Under the pieces are notes generated by a model that had not been told where the DNA came from, did no database searches, and saw only the letters and a program-made list of their open reading frames with translations. From a virus, in the UHGV virus genome UHGV-0092341: a stretch of 31,377 nt of DNA; one strand, 5' to 3'. The number at the start of each line of letters is the position of its first letter. Positions within the stretch are counted from its first letter, which is position 1. Of this stretch, positions 746 through 28,120 are shown piece by piece. Both the position numbers and the translations under genes were made by a program.

Positions 746-1276
746 TTACTGCACATCCTGCTCAAAAGGAATTATTGAAAAATCCTCAATATCACTTTTT
801 ATGGTAATACCGGGAATATTTTTCACGGCGTCCTTTTCATTCAGGATAGCGTCTTTATTTATTTCCTCTTTTACACGAATAAAGCGCTCAAGCCCCAGAC
901 GTCTCAGTAGTTCAATAACATTATCCGCTCCGCGAATGCTGACTGACGGCGGGCGGTTTCGCCACTGCACCTCGCCGGTGGTGAGGTTAGCAAACTTCAC
1001 CTTCCCGTTGCCGGTCAGTTCATCACGGTGTGCCTCACACCATGTCTGGATACCGGACTGCAGTTCGGCCATGCGTTTTTTCAGGCTCTCGGTGAGCGGG
1101 GCATAACGTGCAGTGATGTCGCCAATGGTGTCATTCATTTCTGTTTCAGCCCTGACCAGTTCACGTTGTGCGTCACCGAGCAGTCTGATGCCCTCAATGA
1201 CCTCTTCGCGTGTCCCTGGTACCCAGAGTGCCGCTGCGGACTTGATACGTTTTGCCCCTTTTGTACTTTTTGCCAT
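746..1276 (-). CDS. gam: Gam-like host-nuclease inhibitor / DNA-end-binding protein (Mu Gam family)
   Basis: 176 aa; N-terminal MAKSTKGAKRIKSAAA and C-terminal GITIKSDIEDFSIIPFEQ closely match my recollection of Mu Gam; sits downstream of B as in Mu. Confidence 0.85.
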   Translation of the reverse strand: MAKSTKGAKRIKSAAALWVPGTREEVIEGIRLLGDAQRELVRAETEMNDTIGDITARYAPLTESLKKRMAELQSGIQTWCEAHRDELTGNGKVKFANLTTGEVQWRNRPPSVSIRGADNVIELLRRLGLERFIRVKEEINKDAILNEKDAVKNIPGITIKSDIEDFSIIPFEQDVQ

Positions 1277-1303
1277 ATCTTATGATTTCTCCAGTTGTGC
1301 TGA

Positions 1304-1573
1304 TTACCACAAAGATTCCGGCCACACGACGCGACAGCCGTGCAGTTCGAAAACGCCCTGACGGAAATATCCCCTGTGGTCATGTCCGGTATACAGATAA
1401 CAGGCCTTTCCCTGCTCAAGCATGCGCATGCAATGCGCACTCCGGGAAACGCGGATGACAGGTTTGTTACCCCTGATGGTGATGCTCTGTATATCCGTAT
1501 TCGTCGCCTTAAGTGCCATAATGGCTGACTGCACTTTGTTAATCTGCTGGCTGATAACTGTGGTGGATTTCAT
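1304..1573 (-). CDS. hypothetical early protein (89 aa), semi-essential-region-like
   Basis: ATG 2 nt after B stop; SD-like AAGGGG upstream; no recognisable motif. Confidence 0.5.
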   Translation of the reverse strand: MKSTTVISQQINKVQSAIMALKATNTDIQSITIRGNKPVIRVSRSAHCMRMLEQGKACYLYTGHDHRGYFRQGVFELHGCRVVWPESLW

Positions 1574-1575
1574 TA

Positions 1576-2742
1576 TTAAACCCCTTTGACAACGTCAGCA
1601 TTGACCTGTGGAACCCCGATTTCAGCGGCCAGATTCATGGCGGCTATCACCAGGTTACTGACGGCCAGCGGATACAGCAGGCTGACCATATTTTTACGAT
1701 GACTTCCCGGATTGCTCAGGCGGGCACGTATGGCATCCACTGCGCTGGCGTCCATAATGTCCGTCAGTTGTTTACCGGCCCGTTGCAGTTTGAACGTCAG
1801 AAATTCTTCAAGGTTATTGTCCAGAGGCAGAAGTTCGACCACCTCACAGCGCTGAACGACTTCACGGACTTCCATATTGCGTTCAGACAGTTTTGTCGCC
1901 AGTTCCGGCTGGCCAATCAGCACGATGGACAGCAGTTTTTTGAAACCGGACTCCAGCTCAAAAAAGCGTTTGAGGTGTTTCAGTGTCGGAATGGGCAGAC
2001 TGTGGGCCTCCTCAATCACCAAAACGTGGCTGAACCCCGCCTGGCTGCTGTCTTTCAGGACGCGATGCAACTGGCGAAAACGGGCGTCCTGACTGCGTCT
2101 GATGCTTTCCAGTGGTGCGATGGTACTGATAATGGCTTCGGCAATCGCTGCTGCCTTCAGGGTTTTCCCTTTCACATCGTTGTCTTCCATAGCGATGATG
2201 TATGGCTCGATAACAATTACCGGCGCATTCTCGCGGTTGATACGTTCAGTCAGGTCGCGGCGCAGCGTGGATTTACCCGCACCGGACTCACCGATGACGG
2301 CCATAAACCCACCATGACGGGCTGTCTGGTACAGCGCCTCACGCACGTAGCGAATGTCCGGGGTGGTGAACACATCATCAGAACCCTGCATGGCTTCGTC
2401 GGCGAACGGGTCACGGAAAAGACCAAACGCTTTTTTGGTTGCTGGAAATAACACCTGTTTTTTGAGTAACATATTCTCTTCCTCACTGAGGCTCGTTTTA
2501 TCTGTGGTACCCGCTGTACGGGGCGTGGCCGCGCCCTGTACAGCATCAAAACTCTTCGTTGTATCAATCCCCTGACTTTCCAGCCAGGACGCAAGACGCC
2601 GGCGCACTTCTCCAGGGCGGGTGCGGGGCCACGCGTTATGATTCACAATCTGGGCCAGCGTGGCCTCAGAAACATCGACAGCTCTCGCCACCACCGCCTG
2701 TGGGATACGGGCCTCTTTCAGTTGCTGCTTCAGTACCAGCAT
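1576..2742 (-). CDS. AAA+ ATPase, transposition target-DNA activator (MuB-like)
   Basis: Walker A GESGAGKST and Walker B HVLVIEEAH; directly downstream of transposase. I place the start at ATG 2742-2740 (SD GGAGG, 5-nt spacer, 10 nt after A stop) rather than the track's GTG at 2781. Confidence 0.8.
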   Translation of the reverse strand: MLVLKQQLKEARIPQAVVARAVDVSEATLAQIVNHNAWPRTRPGEVRRRLASWLESQGIDTTKSFDAVQGAATPRTAGTTDKTSLSEEENMLLKKQVLFPATKKAFGLFRDPFADEAMQGSDDVFTTPDIRYVREALYQTARHGGFMAVIGESGAGKSTLRRDLTERINRENAPVIVIEPYIIAMEDNDVKGKTLKAAAIAEAIISTIAPLESIRRSQDARFRQLHRVLKDSSQAGFSHVLVIEEAHSLPIPTLKHLKRFFELESGFKKLLSIVLIGQPELATKLSERNMEVREVVQRCEVVELLPLDNNLEEFLTFKLQRAGKQLTDIMDASAVDAIRARLSNPGSHRKNMVSLLYPLAVSNLVIAAMNLAAEIGVPQVNADVVKGV

Positions 2743-2752
2743 GTTTTCCTCC

Positions 2753-4522
2753 TCAGTTGCCGTTAACAATGCTGATAACACTGCTGCGGACCGGCGTGGT
2801 CAGCGTGGCCATGACTTCATCCAGTGCGGCTTCCGGTACGCCGTCCGGGTACTGTGCCGTTAACTGGCGGTAATGTTCCGGCGTCCAGGTAAGGCCGTCG
2901 GCGCTGAACTTATCGCGCAGGGCTTTCGCGGCCTCCACATGAGTCATGGGACGTTGTTCAGTGCGCGGCCCGCGTACGTCAGAGGCCTGACCACGCTTCG
3001 GCATATAGGCCGGAAGTGTGGCGTCATCAATATGTTTATACGGGTCAAGCCGCCCGCCGAACGGCAGCGCCTTCGCCTTGCGTGCGGCGGCTGCATCTGC
3101 GGCGTTGTCTGTACCGGTAACCAGCGCTTCGGTTTCTTTTGCCGCCATCTGTGCCGGGGTTTCCGGCAGGGCTTTGTAACTTTCGCCAAATACCGCCGCG
3201 CCTTCAGCAAAGCCAAACTCGTTCTTTCTGACCTCTTCGACCAGGAAGAACGTCTCGTGGCCGTCCTCACCGGTCAGAACCACCTGTGCCACATCGCTGC
3301 GCCATGGGTTACGGGTAATCATCAGTTTTTCACCAACCAGTACGCCCGGTACCGTTGATACGTCAAATTCAGTGCCCCGGAACGAGACACGAAGTTTTGG
3401 CGTGACTTTGCGGAGTTCTGGTGTCGCCACAGCCAGTTCACGGCATACCTCAACGGAAGGCGCTTTTTTCAGCTGCTCAGCAGTAATCTTCAGCCAGATA
3501 TCCGTGCGGGTTTTACCGTGGCGGCTGTGAACAGCCGTGGCGTTAAAGTGGCTGCGCCATTTCGCGGCCAGCGCGTTGAGTTCTTCCAGACTGTGAACCG
3601 GCCGGAACTTCAGACCCGGCTCCAGCTTGCGTTCGATAATGTCACGCGCCTTTTCCACCTGTCCGGTGGCGCGGGCGTTATGCGGCTTGTGTGCTATCAG
3701 GTCGATGCCCAGTGAGCGGCACATGTTTTTCGTCATACCCGCGGTGTTTGCCGAGCCGGGGTCGAGATAGAGTATTTTCGGCACGCCGTGCAGCACGTCT
3801 GCGCCGCCACGCTCCTGCATGGCGTTGATAAGCACAGAACACAGGTTCTCACCGGATTCCGCACCCGTCACATACTCAACGTAAATCCAGCCGCTGGCAT
3901 GGTCGGTAATCTCGTAACTCCACACGCGGTCACTGGCGATACGGGCAAGGTTAGCGGGCTTGTTCTTGTAGAACTTCGCGCTGTCCATCACCTGCAGTCC
4001 TTTGTGTCCATTACTCAGGTAGTAAAGCGTGCAGAGCGAGGCATCAATCTGCCAGACATGATTGGGATGCAGACTGGCCACTTCAGTATGTGGTGCAGGG
4101 GCATCCAGTTGTTCCGGGTGCAGGCCATAGTTACGCAGGGCTCGGCTGATGGCATCTTCGGACAACGGGAAAAACTCACCGGTGGTTTCATCTGTTCTGC
4201 CTGCGGAGATAAAGCCGTTAGCCCGCAGGGTTTCCACTGCATCCGCGATGGAATAGAGACGCTTACCGTTCTTGCGGGTGGCCTCACGCAGTGTGGCAGA
4301 TATCAGCGCGGCTTCGTCGCGGGTCAGGGCGCTGCGCCCGGCATCGGCGCGTTTTTTGCGTTTATCAGTCACAGAGACCTCCTTCAGCCTGCGCAGCAGA
4401 GTGGCGCGGGACATGCCAAGTTCAGCACAGGCAGCGTCGTATACTGCACCGCGTTTACCATGCCCCGCATTACGTGCCGCGCGGGCTGTTTCAACCAGTT
4501 TTTCAGTCAGTGCCGGGGTCAT
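2753..4522 (-). CDS. DDE transposase (MuA-like, rve/integrase core)
   Basis: 589 aa; HVWQIDAS-type first catalytic Asp region; N-terminal HTH-like segment; paired with B ATPase downstream; SD AGGGAAG upstream. Confidence 0.85.
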   Translation of the reverse strand: MTPALTEKLVETARAARNAGHGKRGAVYDAACAELGMSRATLLRRLKEVSVTDKRKKRADAGRSALTRDEAALISATLREATRKNGKRLYSIADAVETLRANGFISAGRTDETTGEFFPLSEDAISRALRNYGLHPEQLDAPAPHTEVASLHPNHVWQIDASLCTLYYLSNGHKGLQVMDSAKFYKNKPANLARIASDRVWSYEITDHASGWIYVEYVTGAESGENLCSVLINAMQERGGADVLHGVPKILYLDPGSANTAGMTKNMCRSLGIDLIAHKPHNARATGQVEKARDIIERKLEPGLKFRPVHSLEELNALAAKWRSHFNATAVHSRHGKTRTDIWLKITAEQLKKAPSVEVCRELAVATPELRKVTPKLRVSFRGTEFDVSTVPGVLVGEKLMITRNPWRSDVAQVVLTGEDGHETFFLVEEVRKNEFGFAEGAAVFGESYKALPETPAQMAAKETEALVTGTDNAADAAAARKAKALPFGGRLDPYKHIDDATLPAYMPKRGQASDVRGPRTEQRPMTHVEAAKALRDKFSADGLTWTPEHYRQLTAQYPDGVPEAALDEVMATLTTPVRSSVISIVNGN

Positions 4523-4855: not shown

Positions 4856-5772
4856 TACTGCATATCCTCCGGTCGGTTGATTTCAGGTTCCGGTTCGGTC
4901 AGCCAGGCGGGGACATCGTTACCCGATGGTGCGGCATCAAGGTCAAACGTCTCACGCAATGCATGAACACTGCGTTCAATCTGACAGACCAGACCGGCCA
5001 TGAAATCTCTGGGGGTATCAATCATGTTTTTACTGCAGTATTCACACAGGGTTTCAAAGGCACCGGACAGCCGGACGGCAACAGCAGATTCCGCTTCAAC
5101 CGCTAATGCCGTCACTTCCGCCCGCAGCTTCTTCATCTCTTCATCAGGCTCAGGCGGCTGAATACGGGATTTCTTCTCCAGTCTGGTGGAGAGTGAATCT
5201 ATTTTTTCATTTTTGTCGGCAAGTACGCGCTGTTGTGCTGCGTTGGTTTCACGCGCTTCGCGCAGAGCCTGACGGAGTTCACGTACTGACATGCGATCAA
5301 CGTCGTCAAGCGTCAGGCCGGCAACTGTGCCGCCGTCGGCCAGTTCGGCAAGGTCTTCGTCATCTTCAGCAACAAGTTCAAATAATTTTGCCTTACCTAA
5401 AAGCGACAACGTTGTCGCTTTTGGCTCTAGTTTTGGTGAAAGGTATTTCAAAGATGCTTTCATCATTCGTTGTGCTGCGCGCACATGCAGACCAAGTTGT
5501 TCTTCTACAATTCCAACAAAGTCCCCGTGTGGTTCATTTTCTTTGAGAATAATAAGCCGTTTACCTGCCTCCAGCATGGCCTCAGCGCTCTGTGCCATAT
5601 AAAACCGAGCCTCATGAACTATGCGATCTCGCTCATAGGGCTGACCATCGCCAAACTGCTGCATGATCTCCATGCGATGCTGTGTCATGGCGTTCAGACT
5701 GACATTGAGATCATCCGACAGAGGCTCCTCGGCGTTCAGTTCAGTGTTAACGGGGGATTTGGTGCGTCCCAT
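4855..5772 (-). CDS. hypothetical early protein (305 aa), acidic with coiled-coil-like centre
   Basis: Strong SD AAGGAG 6 nt upstream of ATG at 5772; no catalytic motif recognised. Confidence 0.55.
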   Translation of the reverse strand: MGRTKSPVNTELNAEEPLSDDLNVSLNAMTQHRMEIMQQFGDGQPYERDRIVHEARFYMAQSAEAMLEAGKRLIILKENEPHGDFVGIVEEQLGLHVRAAQRMMKASLKYLSPKLEPKATTLSLLGKAKLFELVAEDDEDLAELADGGTVAGLTLDDVDRMSVRELRQALREARETNAAQQRVLADKNEKIDSLSTRLEKKSRIQPPEPDEEMKKLRAEVTALAVEAESAVAVRLSGAFETLCEYCSKNMIDTPRDFMAGLVCQIERSVHALRETFDLDAAPSGNDVPAWLTEPEPEINRPEDMQ

Positions 5773-6887: not shown

Positions 6888-7652
6888 TCAGAAGTTGCAG
6901 ATTACCAGTTCACGGCGCGGCGTGGGTTTCCCCGCCAGACTGTAGTTGATATTCACCGTCTGTATGTTCAGTTCAGTGAACACCCGACGCATCTGCGGAA
7001 TGTCGTTCACCGAGATAATCATCTTTCCTCTGATGCACCGGGCCAGTTCTGCGAGTAGTGTGTAGTTCTCTTCAGGAAAATCCACACCATAGCCTTCCGT
7101 CCCCAGATAGGGCGGATCACAGTAGAACAGCGTGTGCGGACGGTCATAACGCTTAATGCACTGGTGCCAGTCCATGTGTTCTATCACCGTTCTGGAAAGC
7201 CGCAGGTGTGCCGCTGACAGTTCTTCTTCAATACGTAGCAGATTGAAGCGTGGCGGAGATGTGGTGGAGGTGCCGAAGCTGTGCCCTGCCACCTTGCCAC
7301 CAAATGCCTGCTTCTGGAGGTAGTAGAACCGTGCCGCACGCTGGATATCCGTCAGTGTTTCTTCCGGGGTGATCTGCAGCCATTTGTAGATCTGCCGGCT
7401 GACCAGCGCCCATTTGAACTGGCGGATAAATTCTTCCAGGTGATGTTTTACCACCCGGTACAGATTCACCAGTTCACCATTGATATCGTTAATGACTTCG
7501 AGCTTGCCGGGAGTCTTGAGAAAATAGAGCGCAGCTGCGCCGCAGAACGGCTCCACATAACATTCATGCGCAGGAAACAGCGGCAGGATGTGTTTTCCCA
7601 GGCGGCGTTTGCCACCAATCCATGGAACGATGGGTAATGTCTGCGTTTTCAT
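6888..7652 (-). CDS. Dam-like N6-adenine DNA methyltransferase (D12 class), orphan
   Basis: 254 aa; motif I FCGAAA near N-terminus and motif IV DPPY (FYCDPPYLG) near C-terminus; no adjacent restriction-enzyme-like gene. Confidence 0.8.
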   Translation of the reverse strand: MKTQTLPIVPWIGGKRRLGKHILPLFPAHECYVEPFCGAAALYFLKTPGKLEVINDINGELVNLYRVVKHHLEEFIRQFKWALVSRQIYKWLQITPEETLTDIQRAARFYYLQKQAFGGKVAGHSFGTSTTSPPRFNLLRIEEELSAAHLRLSRTVIEHMDWHQCIKRYDRPHTLFYCDPPYLGTEGYGVDFPEENYTLLAELARCIRGKMIISVNDIPQMRRVFTELNIQTVNINYSLAGKPTPRRELVICNF

Positions 7653-19852: not shown

Positions 19853-20103
19853 TGAAAGAATACCGCTATTCCGGCCCGGCCAGCGGCGTCACGCTGTCGG
19901 ACGGAACCGAAATCCTGCTCTGGCCGGGGAAGACGGTTTCCCTGCCGGAGGAGCATGACTACGTGAAGGTACTGGTGGCGCTGAAACATCTGACGCCGGT
20001 ACCTGAAGAGACTAAACCCGCCGGCACACCGGCTGTGCAGTCACCAAAGCGCAGAAGCAGCAGTGACAGCGAAGTGAAAACGGAGGACACCCATGGCAGC
20101 TAA
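19849..20103 (+). CDS. small hypothetical protein (84 aa)
   Basis: ORF in track; overlaps neighbours at both ends. Confidence 0.45.
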   Translation: MMKEYRYSGPASGVTLSDGTEILLWPGKTVSLPEEHDYVKVLVALKHLTPVPEETKPAGTPAVQSPKRRSSSDSEVKTEDTHGS

Positions 20104-21520
20104 CTATCTGCATGGTCCCGAAACCATTGAGGTGGAAAACGGTGCCCGCCCGGTTAAAACGGTGAAATCTGCCGTTATTGGCCTGATTGGTACCGCCCCG
20201 ATGGGGGATGTCAATACGCTGGTACAGTGCCTGTCTGAGAAAGACGCAGCGGCATTTGGCAGCCAGTTCACCGGCTTTACCATTCCGCAGGCGCTGGATG
20301 CGATTTATGACCATGGTGCAGGTACCGTTCTGGTCATTAACGTCCTCGACCCGGCGAAACATAAAACGGCGATCGAGGATGAGGTGGTTACCTTTGACAA
20401 ATCGACAGGGCAGGCCAGACTGGCGCATCCGGTTGTCGCTAATGTGGTGGTGAAAAACAGTGAAGGCAGCACCTCCCACACGGCGAACACGGACTACCGT
20501 GTTGATGCGCAGGCGGGTGTGCTCACGAACCTGGGCAAGGCTATTGAGGCCGGTGGCAGCGTGAAGGTGAGCTATGAGTACGCGGACCCGTCGAAGGTGA
20601 CTGCGGCGGACATCATCGGCGGGGTGAACAGCGCCGGAAACCGAACCGGCATGAAGCTGCTTAACGACAGCTTCAACCTGTACGGCTATTTCGCCAAAAT
20701 TCTGATTGCGCCGGTGTTCTGCACCCAGAAGAGTGTCGCAGTTGAGCTTATCGCCATGGCAGAGAAGCTGGGCGCGGTAACCTACATTGATGCGCCTGTC
20801 GGTACCACCTTTGCACAGGCTCTGGCAGGTCGTGGCCCGGAAGGCACCATCAACTTCAATACCAGCTCCGACCGCGTCCGTCTGTGCTATCCGCATGTGA
20901 AGGTATATGACCCGGTGACAAACACAGAGCGTCTGGAGCCGCTCAGCCAGCGTGCAGCAGGTCTGCGTGCCAGAGTCGATCTGGACAAGGGCTACTGGTG
21001 GTCATCCTCCAATCAGGAGATTCTGGGGATCACCGGCGTGGAGCGCCAGCTGTCCGCGATGATTGATGACCCGCAGAGTGAGGTGAACCTGCTTAACGAA
21101 CAGGGGATCACCACGGTATTCAGCAGTTACGGCAGCGGCCTTCGTCTGTGGGGTAACCGGACGGCAGCATGGCCAACGGTCACCCATATGCGTAACTTTG
21201 AGAACGTTCGCCGCACCGGTGATGTGATCAACGAGTCCATTCGTTATTTCAGCCAGCAGTACATCGACATGCCGATTACTCAGGCGCTGATTGATGCACT
21301 GACGGAGTCGGTCAACGCCTACGGTCGCAAAATGACTGGTGATGGTGCGGTACTGGGCTTCCGTTGCTGGTTTGATCCGGCCCGCAATCCGGAGACGGAG
21401 CTGGCCGCCGGGCACCTGTTGCTGAGCTACAAATATACGCCACCACCGCCGCTGGAGCGACTGACGTTTGAGACTGAGATCACCTCGGAATACCTGTTAA
21501 CCCTGAAAGGGGGCAACTGA
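20093..21520 (+). CDS. contractile tail sheath protein (Mu L / P2 FI-like)
   Basis: 475 aa; SD ACGGAGGA upstream; immediately followed by tube gene. Confidence 0.8.
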   Translation: MAANYLHGPETIEVENGARPVKTVKSAVIGLIGTAPMGDVNTLVQCLSEKDAAAFGSQFTGFTIPQALDAIYDHGAGTVLVINVLDPAKHKTAIEDEVVTFDKSTGQARLAHPVVANVVVKNSEGSTSHTANTDYRVDAQAGVLTNLGKAIEAGGSVKVSYEYADPSKVTAADIIGGVNSAGNRTGMKLLNDSFNLYGYFAKILIAPVFCTQKSVAVELIAMAEKLGAVTYIDAPVGTTFAQALAGRGPEGTINFNTSSDRVRLCYPHVKVYDPVTNTERLEPLSQRAAGLRARVDLDKGYWWSSSNQEILGITGVERQLSAMIDDPQSEVNLLNEQGITTVFSSYGSGLRLWGNRTAAWPTVTHMRNFENVRRTGDVINESIRYFSQQYIDMPITQALIDALTESVNAYGRKMTGDGAVLGFRCWFDPARNPETELAAGHLLLSYKYTPPPPLERLTFETEITSEYLLTLKGGN

Positions 21521-22041
21521 TGTCAAAGATTGAGATAAACCGCATCACGAATGCCAACATCTATCTGGATGGTACTAACCTGCTGGGACGGGCTGAGGAA
21601 GTTAAACTCCCCGATGTCTCCATGATTATGCAGGAACACAAGGCGCTGGGGATGGTGGGTAAGGTGGAACTCCCGGCTGGTTTTGACAAACTGGAAGGCG
21701 AAATCAAATGGAACAGCTTTTACCGCGATGCGATGCTGTCTGCCGCGAACCCGTACAGGTCGCTGGCACTGCAGTGTCGTTCCAGCGTCCAGCGCTACAG
21801 CTCGCAGGGGCTGATTGACGAAATCCCGCTGGTCACCTTCCTGACGATTATGTTCAAGAAGAACCCGCTGGGGACGTTCAAACAGCACGAGAACGCCGAG
21901 TTCTCCAGTAGCTTCACCTGCACGTATATCAGACAGGTACTGGATGGTGAAGAGCTGCTGCAACTGGACTATCTGGCCAACATCTTCCGGGTCGGCGGTG
22001 TTGATCAACTGACTGACTACCGTATCAATATCGGGGGCTGA
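21520..22041 (+). CDS. tail tube protein (Mu M / P2 FII-like)
   Basis: 173 aa, overlapping start with sheath stop; typical size and position. Confidence 0.75.
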   Translation: MSKIEINRITNANIYLDGTNLLGRAEEVKLPDVSMIMQEHKALGMVGKVELPAGFDKLEGEIKWNSFYRDAMLSAANPYRSLALQCRSSVQRYSSQGLIDEIPLVTFLTIMFKKNPLGTFKQHENAEFSSSFTCTYIRQVLDGEELLQLDYLANIFRVGGVDQLTDYRINIGG

Positions 22042-22422: not shown

Positions 22423-22758
22423 ATGTCACAGACCCCATCCGATACTTTTAAATTGTCTTATCCCTTCACCACTGCTGCAGGCACCAGAATTGAGCTGGTT
22501 GAACTGAAACGCCTGACGGTAAAAGACCTGAAGCAGGTGCGCAAAATCAGCAAAAACCCGGCAGACTGGGACGAACCGCTGATTGCCCGCAGTACTGGTC
22601 TTCTCCCGGAAGATCTCGACAATATGGATCTGGCTGATTACCTGCAGTTACAGAAACGATTTCAGCTCATCACGGGGATGGGTGAGAGCAACCAGGGCGC
22701 TGACGCAGGCGCAGGGGCTGCTGGCGAGATGGTTCCGGTTTCAGCCGGGGGAGATTGA
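22423..22758 (+). CDS. tail assembly chaperone (P2 gpE-like)
   Basis: 111 aa acidic protein just upstream of tape measure; SD CAGGAG; overlapped at 3' end by a protein-like ORF in the +1 frame. Confidence 0.6.
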   Translation: MSQTPSDTFKLSYPFTTAAGTRIELVELKRLTVKDLKQVRKISKNPADWDEPLIARSTGLLPEDLDNMDLADYLQLQKRFQLITGMGESNQGADAGAGAAGEMVPVSAGGD

Positions 22759-22840
22759 TGCCCTCGATACTGACGATCTGGAGATGTGGCTGGAGCAGGC
22801 TGAAGAGCAAATAAAAAGCGAGTACGGCGACAAATCATAG
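22748..22840 (+). CDS. frameshift extension of tail chaperone (E'-like), +1 frame
   Basis: +1-frame reading ...GEIDALDTDDLEMWLEQAEEQIKSEYGDKS is protein-like; the -1 frame has a stop at 22683. G5 run at 22747-22751 is a possible slip site. Confidence 0.4.
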   Translation, partial: GEIDALDTDDLEMWLEQAEEQIKSEYGDKS

Positions 22841-22915: not shown

Positions 22916-25867
22916 ATGTCGGGACAGTTTTCAGTCGGCGTTGTTATCGGCGGGATGATTGGTAGCACATTCCGTTCTGCAATGAGCGGTACCCGCCGTG
23001 CGCTTGATTCCCTGAGCGATACCTCACGCCGCCTGCAGGAACGTCAGAACGCTTTAACCCGTGCAACAGAACGTTATGGTCAACTGGGTTCTTCCCGGAT
23101 GCAGCATCTCAACAGCGAGCTGCTGCGGGTAAGCCGCACCATGGAGCAAATTGAGCGCCAGCAGCGCCGTCTGTCAGCGGCATCCGCTACCAGTGATGCG
23201 CTGAAAGCTAACCGCATGGCGCTGTATGGTCAGGGGATTGAAGCGTATGGCATGGCACAGACTGTTTATCATACGGTTTCCCCTGCCGTTCAGCAGTCCA
23301 TGTCTTTTCAGGACAAAATGATTGATATGTCGATCACCGCAAAATATGACAATAAAACGCGGGATGGACTTGCCGGACAGATAAAAGGCTGGGCGCTTAA
23401 ATACAATCAGTATCAGGATGAGCTGCAGGAGGCGGTGGGTTCACTCATCAGCGACAATATTGATAATGTGTCAGATATCGGTTTTCTGATGCCGGATATT
23501 GCCCGCGCGGCAACGGCAACACGCACGTCTGCTCAGGACTGGGCAAAAGTGGCCGCAGTCTGGCAAAACTCCCTGAAAGGTGCGGCCAGAGATTTTGGTG
23601 CCGTTCAGAATATTATGGCTTATGCCGGTGACCAGGGGTCATTTGAAATCCCGGATCAGGTCAAGTGGATGCAGTCCCTGGCCCCAATGATGGCGGGTAT
23701 TGCCAGTGGAAAAGAGGCTGTTGCTGAAATCGGGGCCAGTCTCCAGATAGCAAAAATCGGTGCAGGTTCCACCGACGAAGCAGCCAATAATTTTAAAAAC
23801 TTTCTTACCAAAATTTTTGCCCGCGATACTCAGAAACAGTTTGCTGATCTGGGTATTGATTTGCAGGGATCTATTGCGAGTTATAAAGCTGCGGGGATCT
23901 CTCCGATTGAAGGGATGTTGAGTGTTATAGAACGTTACCTCAATGCCAAAAGCCCCGAAGCGCTGGCCGGCTTCAAATCAGCCATGAAAATAAAGAATGA
24001 TACGGCAAGAGATGAGGCACTTCAGGCTCTGGCGAAAAACTTTGGTCTGGGCGATATGTTCGCGGATATGCAGGTCATGGCATTTATCCGCCCGATGCTG
24101 GCCAACATGGACAGATATCGAGAGATCCGTGCCGGTGCTCTCAGGGCTGCGGATAACGATTTGCTTGCCAGTGCTTATGATCAGCGGCTGAAATCTCCCC
24201 TTGAAGCCACTAAAACACTTATGGTCAGCAGTCGCGATCTGGCAATTACGCTGGGCGATCAATTAGCTCCATCTTTTATTTCTTTGACTCAGGAACTGCT
24301 TCCACTCATTCAGGGGGCAAAACACTGGGTAGCGACTCACCCGCAATTTGTCAGTGGGGCTTTTAAGCTCATCAGTGCGCTCCTTGCGATTAAGATAGCG
24401 ACTGTTGGTCTCAAACTGGGGCTGAATCTCCTTATTTCCCCCTTTGTAAGTGTCTGGAAAAATGCTGTTTTACTTCGGGCCAACTGGCTTCGTCTGTCGC
24501 TCGCACTGGGGCAAGGCGGTAAGCTCCGCTGGCTGGTGACCGGATTTAGCGCCGTCGCCAGAGGAGCCAGAACACTGAGTGGCGTGCTCTCCGGGGGGCT
24601 GGTTCGCGGAATTATGCTCGCCGGACGTGCTGTTCTCTGGATTGGGCGTGCGCTGATGATGAATCCCATCGGTCTCGTTATCACCGCTGTCGCGGCAGCA
24701 GCTTACCTTATCTACCGCAACTGGGGGGCAGTCAGTGGCTGGTTTAAACAGCGCTGGGCAGACATTCAGGAAGCCTTTAACGGCGGCATTGTGGGAATTG
24801 GTAAGTTACTGATTAACTGGTCGCCGGCAGGCCTGCTCTATAAAGCCTTTGCGGCTGCGCTGAAATATTTCGGCGTTGCTCTGCCGGCAAAGTTCACCGA
24901 CTTCGGTGGCCATCTTATCGACGGTCTGATTAACGGTATCAAAAACAAATGGGGGTCGCTCAAATCCAGTGTAACCGGAATGGGTGACAGCATCAGTAGC
25001 TGGTTTAAACAGTGCTGGGCTGACATTCAGGAAGCCTTTAACGGCGGTATCGCGGGAACTGGTAAGCTGCTGATTAACTGGTCGCCGGCAGGTCTGCTCT
25101 ATAAAGCCTTTGCAGCTGCGCTGAAATATCTTGGTGTTGATCTGCCGGCAAAGTTTACCGACTTCGGTGGCCATCTTGTCGATGGTCTGATTAACGGTAT
25201 CAAAAACAAATGGGAGTCGCTCAAATCCAGTGTAACCGGAATGGGTGACAGCATCAGTGGCTGGTTCAGCGAAAAGCTGGGCATTCATTCGCCGAGCCGC
25301 GTGTTTATGGGCTTTGGTGACAATATCGCGCAGGGGGCCGCCATTGGCCTGCAGCGGACCACTCCGCTTGCAGCTCTGGCCGGGCAGCGAATGGCCAGTG
25401 AACTGCTCCCCAGAATGCCCGTGAGCATCCAGGGGCCAGAAATACGGGATAACACTTCAGGTGTTCGCTTCAGTATGCCGTTGCCCGATATCAACGGGTT
25501 TATGTCGTCTGCTAAAAATGCGATCGGAGCCGTAATCAATAGTTTGTCTTCCATGCCCGTTATTCCGCTCTCCACCCGGGCATCGATTTTACCAGGGCAA
25601 CGTCTGGCAAATGAGATGACACCGGATGTTCCCCGTATCCCCTCGTCTGAAATCCTGGCTGCCGGATATTCAGGCCGTGGTGCAGCTGCAACCGGCGGTG
25701 GAACGTCTGGTGGTATCCAGGTCAGCTTTAATCCTCAGTTTTTCCTCAATGGCAAGGAAACCACAGCGCCTGCAGGACTGACTGGTGCCCTGAATATGAG
25801 TCTGCATGAGCTGGAAAAAATGCTGGAGCGTCTGCTGGCTCAGAAACAACGTAAGGAGTACCGCTGA
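22916..25867 (+). CDS. tail tape measure protein
   Basis: 983 aa, helical N-terminal half, hydrophobic segments, internal tandem repeat; downstream of chaperone pair. Confidence 0.85.
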   Translation: MSGQFSVGVVIGGMIGSTFRSAMSGTRRALDSLSDTSRRLQERQNALTRATERYGQLGSSRMQHLNSELLRVSRTMEQIERQQRRLSAASATSDALKANRMALYGQGIEAYGMAQTVYHTVSPAVQQSMSFQDKMIDMSITAKYDNKTRDGLAGQIKGWALKYNQYQDELQEAVGSLISDNIDNVSDIGFLMPDIARAATATRTSAQDWAKVAAVWQNSLKGAARDFGAVQNIMAYAGDQGSFEIPDQVKWMQSLAPMMAGIASGKEAVAEIGASLQIAKIGAGSTDEAANNFKNFLTKIFARDTQKQFADLGIDLQGSIASYKAAGISPIEGMLSVIERYLNAKSPEALAGFKSAMKIKNDTARDEALQALAKNFGLGDMFADMQVMAFIRPMLANMDRYREIRAGALRAADNDLLASAYDQRLKSPLEATKTLMVSSRDLAITLGDQLAPSFISLTQELLPLIQGAKHWVATHPQFVSGAFKLISALLAIKIATVGLKLGLNLLISPFVSVWKNAVLLRANWLRLSLALGQGGKLRWLVTGFSAVARGARTLSGVLSGGLVRGIMLAGRAVLWIGRALMMNPIGLVITAVAAAAYLIYRNWGAVSGWFKQRWADIQEAFNGGIVGIGKLLINWSPAGLLYKAFAAALKYFGVALPAKFTDFGGHLIDGLINGIKNKWGSLKSSVTGMGDSISSWFKQCWADIQEAFNGGIAGTGKLLINWSPAGLLYKAFAAALKYLGVDLPAKFTDFGGHLVDGLINGIKNKWESLKSSVTGMGDSISGWFSEKLGIHSPSRVFMGFGDNIAQGAAIGLQRTTPLAALAGQRMASELLPRMPVSIQGPEIRDNTSGVRFSMPLPDINGFMSSAKNAIGAVINSLSSMPVIPLSTRASILPGQRLANEMTPDVPRIPSSEILAAGYSGRGAAATGGGTSGGIQVSFNPQFFLNGKETTAPAGLTGALNMSLHELEKMLERLLAQKQRKEYR
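24740..25261 (+). repeat. in-frame tandem duplication inside tape measure gene (2 x 261 bp = 2 x 87 aa)
   Basis: WFKQRWADIQEAFNGG...DSISS and WFKQCWADIQEAFNGG...DSISG are near-identical; second copy starts exactly 261 nt after the first (24740 vs 25001). Confidence 0.85.
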
Positions 25868-26751
25868 TGTTTGCCGTACTGGGTGATATTGAGTTTGAGC
25901 TGATTACCTACTGGGACGGCTTCGAGGCCACGTTCGGCGTCGATTATGCGGAGCATGCCCGCATCGGGGGTAAGCCTGGCCTGCAGTTCGTCGGCGACAG
26001 GCTGGACGAAATCCAGATAAGTCTGGTCTTCCATCAGCATTATTGTGTACCCGATGTGGAGCTGGCGAGACTGCGAACAACCATGAAAGCCCATCAGGCA
26101 CTGGCGCTGGTCTTCGGCAACGGTGACTATCGTGGCTGGTTCGTGATTACCGATGTGACCGCAACCAGCGAGCAGACAGACAGCACCGGTAACGTGCTGG
26201 CTGTCAGTGCCACCGTGTCTCTCCGGGAATACACCGGTGATCCGAAAAATCCTCTGCAACCACCGGCAATACGCACGAAGCTCCCGGGTGTCGGGGCGGT
26301 CTCCGGTGCCATTCCTTCACCTTCAGGGGTGGCGCAGTTCATCCGCAACGGCGTCAACTATGCGAAACAGGCGCAGTCTGTACTCCAGACCACTATCAGA
26401 GCCGTTCGGGTGACACAGAAAATGAAGGATAACCCCGTTGTCGCACTGACCCGTGTGCCGGGGCTGATGAGCGGACTGGGTAATATATCCGGGGCTCTGG
26501 GGAAAAGTGTTCCGGCGTTTAACGCACTCTCTGAATCCATGCCCGATGCCATCAGTCTGGCCAGAACAGCCAGCGAAGCAGCCACGTATGTACAGCAGGC
26601 ACAGTCTGCGCTGAGTGGTGTGGACAAAAGAAATATTGCAGGTGCTCTGGATACCGTTTCCGGGCAGCTTAACGCCGCCGGCACAGCATTCAACCGCATG
26701 TCTCCGGGATTAAGTGCAATGGCCGCCAGAATACTGACGAGGAGTGTGTGA
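25867..26751 (+). CDS. tail protein (Mu N / P2 gpU-like position)
   Basis: 294 aa; ATG overlaps tape-measure stop (TGATG). Assignment mainly by position. Confidence 0.5.
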   Translation: MFAVLGDIEFELITYWDGFEATFGVDYAEHARIGGKPGLQFVGDRLDEIQISLVFHQHYCVPDVELARLRTTMKAHQALALVFGNGDYRGWFVITDVTATSEQTDSTGNVLAVSATVSLREYTGDPKNPLQPPAIRTKLPGVGAVSGAIPSPSGVAQFIRNGVNYAKQAQSVLQTTIRAVRVTQKMKDNPVVALTRVPGLMSGLGNISGALGKSVPAFNALSESMPDAISLARTASEAATYVQQAQSALSGVDKRNIAGALDTVSGQLNAAGTAFNRMSPGLSAMAARILTRSV

Positions 26752-26963
26752 TGTTTCTTGAACATGTTACCCGTGACGGAGAGCGCTGGGATTCGCTGGC
26801 ATGGCAGTACTACGGTGACCCGCTGGGCTATCCCCGGATTATTGCCGCCAATCCGCACGTGGCCATCACGCCGGTGCTGCCCTCCGGGCTGTTGTTACTG
26901 ATCCCGGTGATTGAGGCTGAAGAAGCCCGTACAGAAGAGGATATTGCCCCATGGCTGAGATAA
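26748..26963 (+). CDS. tail protein X-like (LysM-like, P2 gpX family)
   Basis: 71 aa; pattern RWDSLAWQYYGDP...IIAANPHV resembles gpX/LysM motif; sits between gpU-like and gpD-like genes as in P2. Confidence 0.6.
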   Translation: MMFLEHVTRDGERWDSLAWQYYGDPLGYPRIIAANPHVAITPVLPSGLLLLIPVIEAEEARTEEDIAPWLR

Positions 26964-28120
26964 ACAGCACTGCGCAAGTCACATCAGCGTTAACCGGCGT
27001 CAGCGATGTGCTGACACCGGTGTTCACTCTGTGGTATCTGCAGAAAAACATCACCTCTGATATCGCGCCTTATGTCACCCGTGTGACCTGGAGCGATAAC
27101 ATCAAAAATGAGTCCGATACCATTGAGGTGGAACTGGACGACACCGATGGCCGCTGGCTGGATAAATGGTATCCGGGCAAGGGTGACACGCTGACGCTGA
27201 AAATGGGCTATCAGGGCGAGAAGCTGCTGTCCTGCGGTACGTTCTCTATAGACGAGATCGAAGTGAGTTCGCCCGCTTCCGTTGTTTCTATCCGTGGGGT
27301 GGCCACCTCGGTTAACAGTGCCCTGCGGACTAAAACCAGTCGTGGTTTTGAGAACACCACGCTGGCAGCTGTTGCGGGGCGGATTGCCAGAAAGCACCGA
27401 CTGAAACTGGTGGGCAGCATTGAGTCCATCAGAATCGACCGGGTGACCCAGTATGCTGAAACGGACGTGGGTTTTCTGCGCCGGCTGGCCAGCGAGTATG
27501 GTTATGCAGTGAAAGTGGTCAGTGACCAGCTGATTTTTTCTCATCTGGCCACACTGCGCAGTCAGGAGCCGGTCAGGCAGTTAAAACCGCAGGATGTGGC
27601 CCGCTTTTCCCTGCGTGACACCATCAACCGGGTCTATAAATCTGCAAAGGTAAAACACCAGAAAAGCAGCAGTAAAAAACTGATCGTCTACGAAGCTGAT
27701 GGTGGTACCCGTGAAAGCGACAAACAAACCAAAGGCGGTAAGGTCACCAGTGCCGACTCACTGAAGGTCAACAGCCGCGTCAGCGACCCGGACAGCGCCC
27801 GGATTAAAGCGGATTCGGCGCTGGCCAGGCATAACGAATACCAGCAGAACGGCTCCCTGACGCTGACGGGAACACCTCAACTGACTGCAGGCAACAAAAT
27901 TGAACTGGTGGGTTTTGGACAGTTATCCGGGCCATGGCTGATAACCACTGCCCGCCATGCGTTTGACCGCAACAGCGGCTATATCACCGAACTGGAGGTG
28001 GCGCGAGGGCCGGTCACGCAGGGCAAGGCGAAGAAAGGTAAAAAGACCGGCAAGAGTCAGACACTGACCGTCTATAAACCGGACGGCAGCACATCTACGG
28101 TAACAAAGGAGAAGAAATAA
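26951..28120 (+). CDS. tail/baseplate hub protein (P2 gpD / Mu P-like)
   Basis: 389 aa (P2 gpD is about this size); lysine-rich C-terminal tail; conserved order. Confidence 0.65.
   Translation: MAEINSTAQVTSALTGVSDVLTPVFTLWYLQKNITSDIAPYVTRVTWSDNIKNESDTIEVELDDTDGRWLDKWYPGKGDTLTLKMGYQGEKLLSCGTFSIDEIEVSSPASVVSIRGVATSVNSALRTKTSRGFENTTLAAVAGRIARKHRLKLVGSIESIRIDRVTQYAETDVGFLRRLASEYGYAVKVVSDQLIFSHLATLRSQEPVRQLKPQDVARFSLRDTINRVYKSAKVKHQKSSSKKLIVYEADGGTRESDKQTKGGKVTSADSLKVNSRVSDPDSARIKADSALARHNEYQQNGSLTLTGTPQLTAGNKIELVGFGQLSGPWLITTARHAFDRNSGYITELEVARGPVTQGKAKKGKKTGKSQTLTVYKPDGSTSTVTKEKK

Follow-up and report, generated by a model that had tools for sequence, protein, structure and literature searches.

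The stretch of DNA analysed here, virus genome UHGV-0092341 (31,377 nucleotides; hereafter the window), is by its gene content a Mu/BcepMu-like transposable myovirus prophage of E. coli with a contractile tail. Its tail tape measure gene (22916..25867, plus strand, 983 amino acids and a stop codon) contains a tandem repeat of a unit coding for 87 amino acids (aa). Tandem Repeats Finder located one large array (24732-25266; period 261, 2.0 copies, 92% matches, 0% indels, score 937), and the window has no second repeat of comparable size. The array lies wholly inside the open reading frame (ORF), extends gap-free over 2.05 x 261 bp and far exceeds chance expectation. In the phase chosen by the program the copies sit at 24732-24992 and 24993-25253, and a repeat search gave 93% identity between them at a spacing of exactly 261. 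In the in-frame phase, which is used below, copy 1 occupies 24734..24994 (aa 607-693) and copy 2 occupies 24995..25255 (aa 694-780), both on the plus strand. The 13-nucleotide start of a third unit, TCAGTGGCTGGTT, is located at 25254..25266 on the same strand; it codes for S-G-W-F and has the same letters as 24732-24744. Pairwise alignment of the two copies shows 19 mismatches in 261 nucleotides (nt) and zero gaps, corresponding to 92.7% identity in DNA and 90.8% in protein. Seventeen codons differ, nine synonymously and eight non-synonymously, the latter giving eight changes in 87 residues (G/S, R/C, V/A, I/T, F/L, A/D, I/V and G/E).

A first-pass annotation of the window had described an in-frame tandem duplication inside the tape measure gene at 24740-25261, made of two near-identical 87-aa units. 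The duplication is confirmed: the repeat aligns gap-free, and the gene that holds it is a genuine tape measure gene with matches to PF10145 and TIGR01760 above cut-off. The interval given falls within the array and begins on a codon boundary (offset 1824 = 3 x 608 in ORF 22916..25867); its two in-frame units are rotated by 2 aa relative to aa 607-693 and 694-780. The repeat is thus real and in register, although "near-identical" is generous wording for copies with the identities stated above.

The label of the gene is likewise correct. PF10145 matched at aa 159-340 with 74 bits (Pfam cut-off 33.2) and TIGR01760 "tape_meas_TP901" at aa 120-493 with 56.3 bits (NCBIfam cut-off 28.8). PHROG 28 "tail length tape measure protein" matched with E = 6e-134, PHROG 5690 also applies, and genes identical to this one are called "phage tail tape measure protein" in RefSeq. 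Three further elements are found on the plus strand of the gene. The region of the PF10145 "phage-related minor tail protein" domain (23390..23935, aa 159-340) is variable among relatives. A hydrophobic helical block (24374..24730, approximately aa 487-605), recognised from the sequence, the conservation profile and the secondary structure of an AlphaFold2 model, sits directly upstream of the units. Just downstream of them is the motif GIHSPSRVF (25280..25306, aa 789-797), which is seen in the conservation profile and in the consensus of 61 diverse relatives.

The number of units varies in E. coli. The gene is carried by 636 of 5,426 complete E. coli genomes, and in these records it spans 2691 nt with one copy, 2952 nt with two or 3213 nt with three. 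A one-copy probe, consisting of the unit and 200-nt flanks, matched at full length in 69 genomes; 16 belong to the close lineage and carry a derived single-copy gene (at least 96.6% identity), and 53 belong to a diverged single-copy lineage (85-90%). With a three-copy probe, a sample of 60 out of 634 genomes gave 13 with three copies, 40 with two and 5 with one (estimated fractions around 22%, 67% and 8%). A collection of approximately 5.8 billion protein sequences was searched in addition. Among the 120 best matches by score (8000 candidates scored), full-length tape measure proteins (TMPs) are almost only 896, 983 or 1070 aa long, that is one, two or three copies, and show many chimera patterns; a 961-aa form occurs too. 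No protein of four-copy length is present among these 120 matches, and the census of E. coli genomes cannot formally exclude four copies. The longest of the 120 proteins (1084 aa) has two copies by unit scan. All three of the three-copy genes examined are intact ORFs of 1070 aa. Strains E30, UPEC129 and TUM14759 are examples with the 896-aa allele, and 2016C-3878 and A1.S1.65 with that of 1070 aa. The flanking chaperone and gpU proteins carry the same RefSeq accessions across copy-number alleles. The prophage population is polymorphic, with TMPs of 896, 983 and 1070 aa set in otherwise near-identical tail modules.

We note that for the three-copy genes L006:1501-4713 and L008:1501-4713 the annotation pipeline PGAP calls two partial pseudogenes ("missing C-terminus" and "missing N-terminus"). 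These calls are probably artefactual and would arise when protein evidence with two copies is aligned to a gene with three. Copy number at this repeat should not be taken from annotation alone. A change of another kind is observed in E. coli FDAARGOS_1252 (L033), where an in-frame deletion of 66 nt (22 aa) in the hydrophobic block leaves a TMP of 961 aa. The deleted segment corresponds to 24531-24596 of the window (aa 539-560) and is bordered by a 7-nt microhomology, GGCTGGT. The several 961-aa proteins in the search may carry a deletion of the same type or may use an alternative start at M23.

Copy 1 and copy 2 differ at 19 sites, and each unit was scored at these (written 1 or 2 in order). 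The one-copy alleles scored were L004, L005, L034 and L035. Their units are chimeras with copy 1 on the left and copy 2 on the right, joined at no fewer than three different exchange points: L004 reads 1111111111|222222222 and L035 reads 11|22222222222222222, L034 is entirely of copy-1 type, and L005 is also of the chimeric kind. The middle units of the triplets are the reciprocal chimeras, with copy 2 on the left and copy 1 on the right (2222222|1(2)1111111111 in L006 and L008, 2|121111... in L007). The flanks of alleles that differ in copy number are near-identical, as expected for such exchange. Reciprocal chimeras in contracted and expanded alleles are the classical signature of unequal homologous recombination between misaligned copies. 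These E. coli alleles of one, two and three copies bear out the earlier description of the repeat as a recombination-prone site. Many further patterns are seen at the protein level, including patchy ones that imply gene conversion.

The divergence of the copies bears on the age of the duplication. Between copy 1 and copy 2 the non-synonymous and synonymous divergences are dN = 0.041 and dS = 0.21, giving dN/dS = 0.19; both copies have therefore long been kept under purifying selection. Outside the array, the gene of the window differs from the one-copy allele L004 at 6 of 2430 nt and from the three-copy allele L006 at 15 of 2430 nt, and alleles of unlike copy number diverge by only 0.25-0.6%. 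The 7.3% nucleotide divergence between the copies is thus 10-30 times that between copy-number alleles outside the repeat. It follows that the founding duplication is much older than the diversification of the present alleles, and the description of the duplication as recent does not hold. What is recent is the change in copy number, not the founding event.

To place the founding event, single-copy relatives were compared. One unit is found in the diverged E. coli alleles L002 and L009 and in Klebsiella phage KP12 (L003), with an interleaved pattern at the diagnostic sites (2122211222121121112). A scan of GTDB, with one genome per species, gave 23 loci, one of which is an E. coli-like two-copy contaminant. 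A single unit is present in 18 of the 19 complete-looking relatives from other species, and L023 gave no match. These 19 are mostly Enterobacterales (Intestinirhabdus, Pantoea, Mixta, Trabulsiella, Dickeya, Brenneria, Xenorhabdus and others). With one unit both in the diverged E. coli alleles and in these relatives, the single copy is the ancestral state, and the doubling arose later, in one lineage of E. coli prophages. GTDB records labelled "Arthrobacter" (sp. GMC3 and sp. Y81; L010, L030 and L032) also contain the prophage gene, at 96-99% identity and with the two-copy array included. Their contigs are short, with coverage of 1.2-7x, and are probably E. coli contamination.

Single-copy alleles have a short imperfect direct repeat on either side of the unit (left TCAGCAGTTGGTTCAAAC..., right TCGGCGGCTGGTTCAAGG...), and the partial direct repeat TGGTTCAA is present at both edges of the unit in the single-copy outgroup alleles. 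The 13-nt homology between 25254-25266 and 24732-24744 is a likely site of the founding duplication. The single module of the ancestral TMP was probably doubled by slippage or illegitimate recombination at the short S-x-W-F-coding homology that brackets it. Since then the copies have accumulated 7% divergence under purifying selection. The stretches of identity left between them permit continued unequal homologous recombination, which yields either one chimeric copy or three copies that include the reciprocal chimera.

The unit is part of the best-conserved portion of the TMP. In an alignment with 14 single-copy relatives, mean identity reaches 0.7-0.9 at aa 494-812, which covers the hydrophobic block, the unit and GIHSPSRVF, and is only 0.1-0.5 at aa 117-465, the PF10145 region. 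Conservation peaks in a stretch of 29 aa (aa 784-812, mean identity 0.92) that holds GIHSPSRVF. The sequence LGIxSPSRVF followed by G..I..G...G(I/L) (25280-25306 and aa 798-812) is a feature of the consensus of 61 diverse relatives; no assigned function was found for the LGIxSPSRVF motif. The unit and the downstream GIHSPSRVF...G..I..G...G(I/L) segment align with z = 3.2, with 30 of 2000 shuffles equally good. The alignment involves the second half of the unit, and it is only suggestive of a degenerate half-unit downstream. No internal sub-repeats were detected in the unit (first against second half, z = 1.1; unit against the upstream hydrophobic block, z = 1.6). Its W and F residues are spaced at 1, 4, 7, 14, 10, 7, 8, 3, 16 and 17, and the periodicity power at 11 or 18 residues does not exceed that of shuffled sequences.

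In an AlphaFold2 model covering aa 487-830, for which 60 diverse relatives were supplied, nearly the whole region is helical. The mean per-residue confidence (pLDDT) is 77 and the predicted template modelling score (pTM) is 0.32; in view of the latter, secondary structure alone was used. Each unit comprises four helices and one 8-residue loop. The modelled region, together with the block at aa 487-605, has the character of a tape measure protein, long and mostly alpha-helical with hydrophobic segments. Neither Pfam nor NCBIfam places a domain in the unit. A sequence search of solved structures in the PDB gave only a non-significant match, 9m8o chain M "Gp14" (E = 0.16), which can serve only as a lead; the alignment covers the YxNW...DxGxxIIDGxxNG... 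region. Foldseek found no match in the PDB for the AlphaFold2 model.

The module extends well beyond this lineage. When the 87-aa unit was searched exhaustively against 1.84 billion representative proteins, it gave 577 matches at E <= 0.001, and the signature NWSP(L/A)GL(F/L)Y...FG..(I/L)..GL..GI is common to these 577 proteins. At least two near-full tandem copies, with periods of 68-119 aa, are present in 27 of the best 150 matches, and one protein (P0122) has as many as four. Tandem copies in many TMP lineages indicate that the module has been multiplied independently. The array in the window is the youngest seen among these module arrays.

Work on other phages bears on what an extra unit would do. 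The length of the TMP sets the length of the tail in lambda (gpH) and T4 (gp29), as cited in PMC13585406 and PMC3271669, and T4 extends the ruler principle to contractile tails (cited in PMC13585406). In TP901-1 the wild-type tail measures 118 nm and removal of 347 aa reduces it to 65 nm, approximately 0.15 nm per aa; deletions shorten the tail stepwise, with contributions from both the repeat and the hydrophobic regions (PMC5099701). The TMP of the window would act in the same way as a ruler for polymerisation of tube and sheath, at approximately 0.15 nm per residue. On this scale each 87-aa unit should add around 13 nm, or 9-10% of the tail. The rise per ring in contractile tails is roughly 4 nm, and a unit would therefore correspond to about three extra rings of tube and sheath. 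The longer tail that the first-pass annotation expected from the additional unit is thus a plausible prediction, in line with the ruler experiments on other phages.

Taken together, we consider it very probable that an ancestral single module was doubled, that the copies diverged, that unequal recombination between them now varies their number, and that the TMP, acting as a ruler, should add tail length with each copy. Several points weigh against this account. Some one-copy patterns at the protein level (11112221, 12221x11) require gene conversion or multiple exchanges. The fractions of two- and three-copy genomes are estimates from evenly spaced samples of 60. Microhomology slippage as the founding mechanism is read from the sequence at the edges of the unit, and the effect of the 896-, 983- and 1070-aa alleles on tail length is carried over from other phages. 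The unit also lies within the most conserved block of the protein (aa 494-812), against identities of 0.1-0.5 for the N-terminal domain. Such conservation exceeds the need of a passive spacer, and length is therefore perhaps not the only or main role of the unit.

The first-pass annotation had also raised the possibility that the array is an assembly artefact, with a second copy introduced, or the repeat mis-resolved, by the assembler. Short-read assemblies do struggle with tandem repeats of this size, and in the record of the nearest isolated phage, Escherichia phage PhiKM, a sequencing gap falls right on the repeat and divides the tape measure gene. A duplication made by an assembler would, however, be identical, and the two copies differ at 19 positions in a coding-like manner (nine synonymous and eight non-synonymous codons). 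Hundreds of complete E. coli genomes carry the same diverged two-copy gene with 97-100% identity: it is 100% identical over its whole length in E. coli FDAARGOS_1267 (complete genome CP069522) and 97-99.6% identical in the others, and the one- and three-copy variants hold the reciprocal chimeras that real recombination predicts. An artefact is thus effectively excluded and we regard it as extremely improbable. The PhiKM gap, at 4914-5240 of locus L001 (approximately 24830-25150 of the window), shows that the repeat defeats some assemblies by a gap and not by false duplication. It could also be supposed that the array is a hybrid: the tape measure genes of two related phages would have recombined unequally and so joined copies that had already diverged. 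In that case the 7% divergence would overstate the age of the array. Phage tail genes are indeed mosaic, as illustrated by L007, where comparison with the window shows 68 differences in 1816 nt on the upstream side of the repeat and only 4 in 614 nt downstream, and diagnostic sites are commonly exchanged between the copies in patches. Against this, the diverged single-copy unit is about equidistant from the two copies (34 differences separate it from copy 1 and an estimated 31 from copy 2), and its finely interleaved pattern is that expected if each copy changed after duplication within the lineage. A donor lineage matching either copy was not found in the GTDB scan (one genome per species) or with the one-copy probe in E. 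coli. The data point to copies 1 and 2 being each other's closest relatives, within limited sampling, and a hybrid origin appears distinctly unlikely.

The conservation of the module leads to a further alternative, in which it would be a functional element besides or instead of a spacer, for example a chaperone-binding segment or an envelope-spanning or channel-forming segment released on infection. Changes in copy number would then alter the dosage of this function, and tail length would change as a side effect. Conservation in the protein family is highest in the unit together with the hydrophobic block before it and GIHSPSRVF after it, and the unit itself remains 86-88% identical in aa sequence where the best matching segment of a relative reaches only 50-57% identity. 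The dN/dS between the copies and the signature common to the 577 representative proteins point the same way. On the other hand, Pfam, NCBIfam and the Foldseek search of the PDB assign the unit no function through a domain model or a solved structure, and the ORF stays intact in alleles of one, two and three copies alike. Conservation is also compatible with a ruler, given that the hydrophobic and repeat regions of the TP901-1 TMP both contribute to length. We see this alternative as rather unlikely. The strong conservation does allow for an additional role of the module, such as chaperone binding or penetration of the envelope.

The genes around the tape measure gene fit its assignment. On the plus strand upstream lie the tail sheath (20093..21520) and tail tube (21520..22041) genes, identified by PHROG 23 and by the annotation of PhiKM and RefSeq relatives. 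Sheath and tube are the polymers whose length the tape measure would set. They are followed by a tail assembly chaperone pair (22423..22758 and an overlapping ORF in the +1 frame, open to 22840; PHROG 166 and RefSeq relatives). Downstream of the tape measure gene are P2 gpU-, gpX- and gpD-like tail genes (25867..28120, plus strand; PHROG 788 and 52, and annotations), and baseplate genes are also found downstream. The order is thus sheath, tube, chaperone pair, tape measure and gpU/X/D-like genes, and the position between chaperones and distal tail genes is typical of a TMP. We note that the chaperone extension ORF is open over 22583-22840 and that relatives annotate 22700-22840 as "GpE family". 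Its frame is +1 relative to ORF 22423-22758, whereas in the lambda paradigm, G/GT, it is -1. Five consecutive G (22747-22751) directly before GAT TGA, where TGA is the stop codon, form a candidate site for a +1 or -2 slip.

The early region of a transposable phage lies in the left part of the window, with genes for Mu Gam (746-1276), a MuB-like DNA transposition protein (1576-2781) and a MuA-like transposase (2753-4522). This region is taken as 746-4522 and 6888-7652 (minus strand) and also includes a DNA methyltransferase gene. Also coded in the left part are endolysin, spanin, terminase, portal, a Mu F-like protein, protease and major head proteins. The combination of MuA/MuB, Gam, a head module of Mu type and a contractile tail marks the window as a Mu-like transposable myovirus. 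The nearest isolated phage, PhiKM (PQ738613) from uropathogenic E. coli, is classified in Bcepmuvirus and matches at 96.7% identity.

The tape measure gene has the same position and family as Mu gp42 and P2 gpT of the Mu/BcepMu- and P2-type myoviruses, and the PhiKM gene is annotated "Mup42". Relatives in other species have one module, and doubling and tripling are confined to one E. coli prophage lineage. More distant proteins, P0122 (four copies), P0123 (three) and P0124 (two), hold the same NWSPxGLxY...FG..I..GL..GI module in tandem upstream of IHSPSRVF. Arrays of the P0122 type are old, at approximately 40-50% aa identity to the unit of the window; the copies in the window are 91% identical, and they are still exchanging and varying in number. 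A looser parallel is found in the needle rulers of type III secretion, such as YscP, in which internal duplications and deletions alter polymer length. YscP is an unrelated protein of an unrelated machine, and the likeness to a tape measure ruler is one of analogy only. Tandem repeat units have also reportedly been described in the TMP of phage p2, by Siponen et al. (2009). Belcaid, Bergeron and Poisson (2011) found that TMP repeat units change number in evolution and proposed them as natural tape units (PMC3271669). The array in the window resembles both in being made of tandem TMP units that evolve by duplication and loss. Those units comprise 11 or 11-11-18 residues with W/F markers, whereas the unit here, at 87 aa, is no multiple of 11 and forms a conserved four-helix module adjoining a hydrophobic block, lacking the 11- or 18-residue W/F periodicity.

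It is already well known that TMP segments can be duplicated in tandem or lost, and that tail length changes with them (Katsura and Hendrix; Abuladze; Pedersen and Mahony; Belcaid). As in lambda gpH (Katsura and Hendrix 1984), T4 gp29 (Abuladze 1994) and TP901-1 (Mahony 2016), the changes described here are in-frame alterations of TMP length in a long-tailed phage. Unlike those experiments, they are natural, recurrent and segregating in a prophage population, and they are known from the genes alone. According to a 2026 survey, reliance on tandem repeats is lower in contractile-tail phages than in siphophages (PMC13585406). Nothing relevant to PhiKM or to copy-number polymorphism of this repeat was found in the literature library searched. 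What is specific here is the combination of a large conserved 87-aa helical module, a Mu-like contractile-tail phage, ongoing reciprocal expansion and contraction, and a near-isogenic allelic series from clinical strains.

It may be asked whether the copy number, one to three in E. coli and up to four elsewhere, is a selected and rapidly reversible setting and not the outcome of neutral slippage. We consider this speculative and hold it to be improbable. If it were true, the setting would tune tail length or the dosage of an envelope-spanning segment of the TMP, and would adapt Mu-like phages to hosts with differing capsule, O-antigen and periplasm dimensions, while the identity retained between copies would keep the switch operable. 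The proof of the ruler from TMP duplications and deletions comes nearly entirely from engineered siphophage mutants. Here, near-isogenic prophages with a TMP longer by 0, 87 or 174 aa are present in hundreds of E. coli strains, including many clinical ST131 or uropathogenic isolates. They form a natural allelic series suited to a test of the ruler in a Mu-like contractile-tail phage, and of the relation between tail length and host range.

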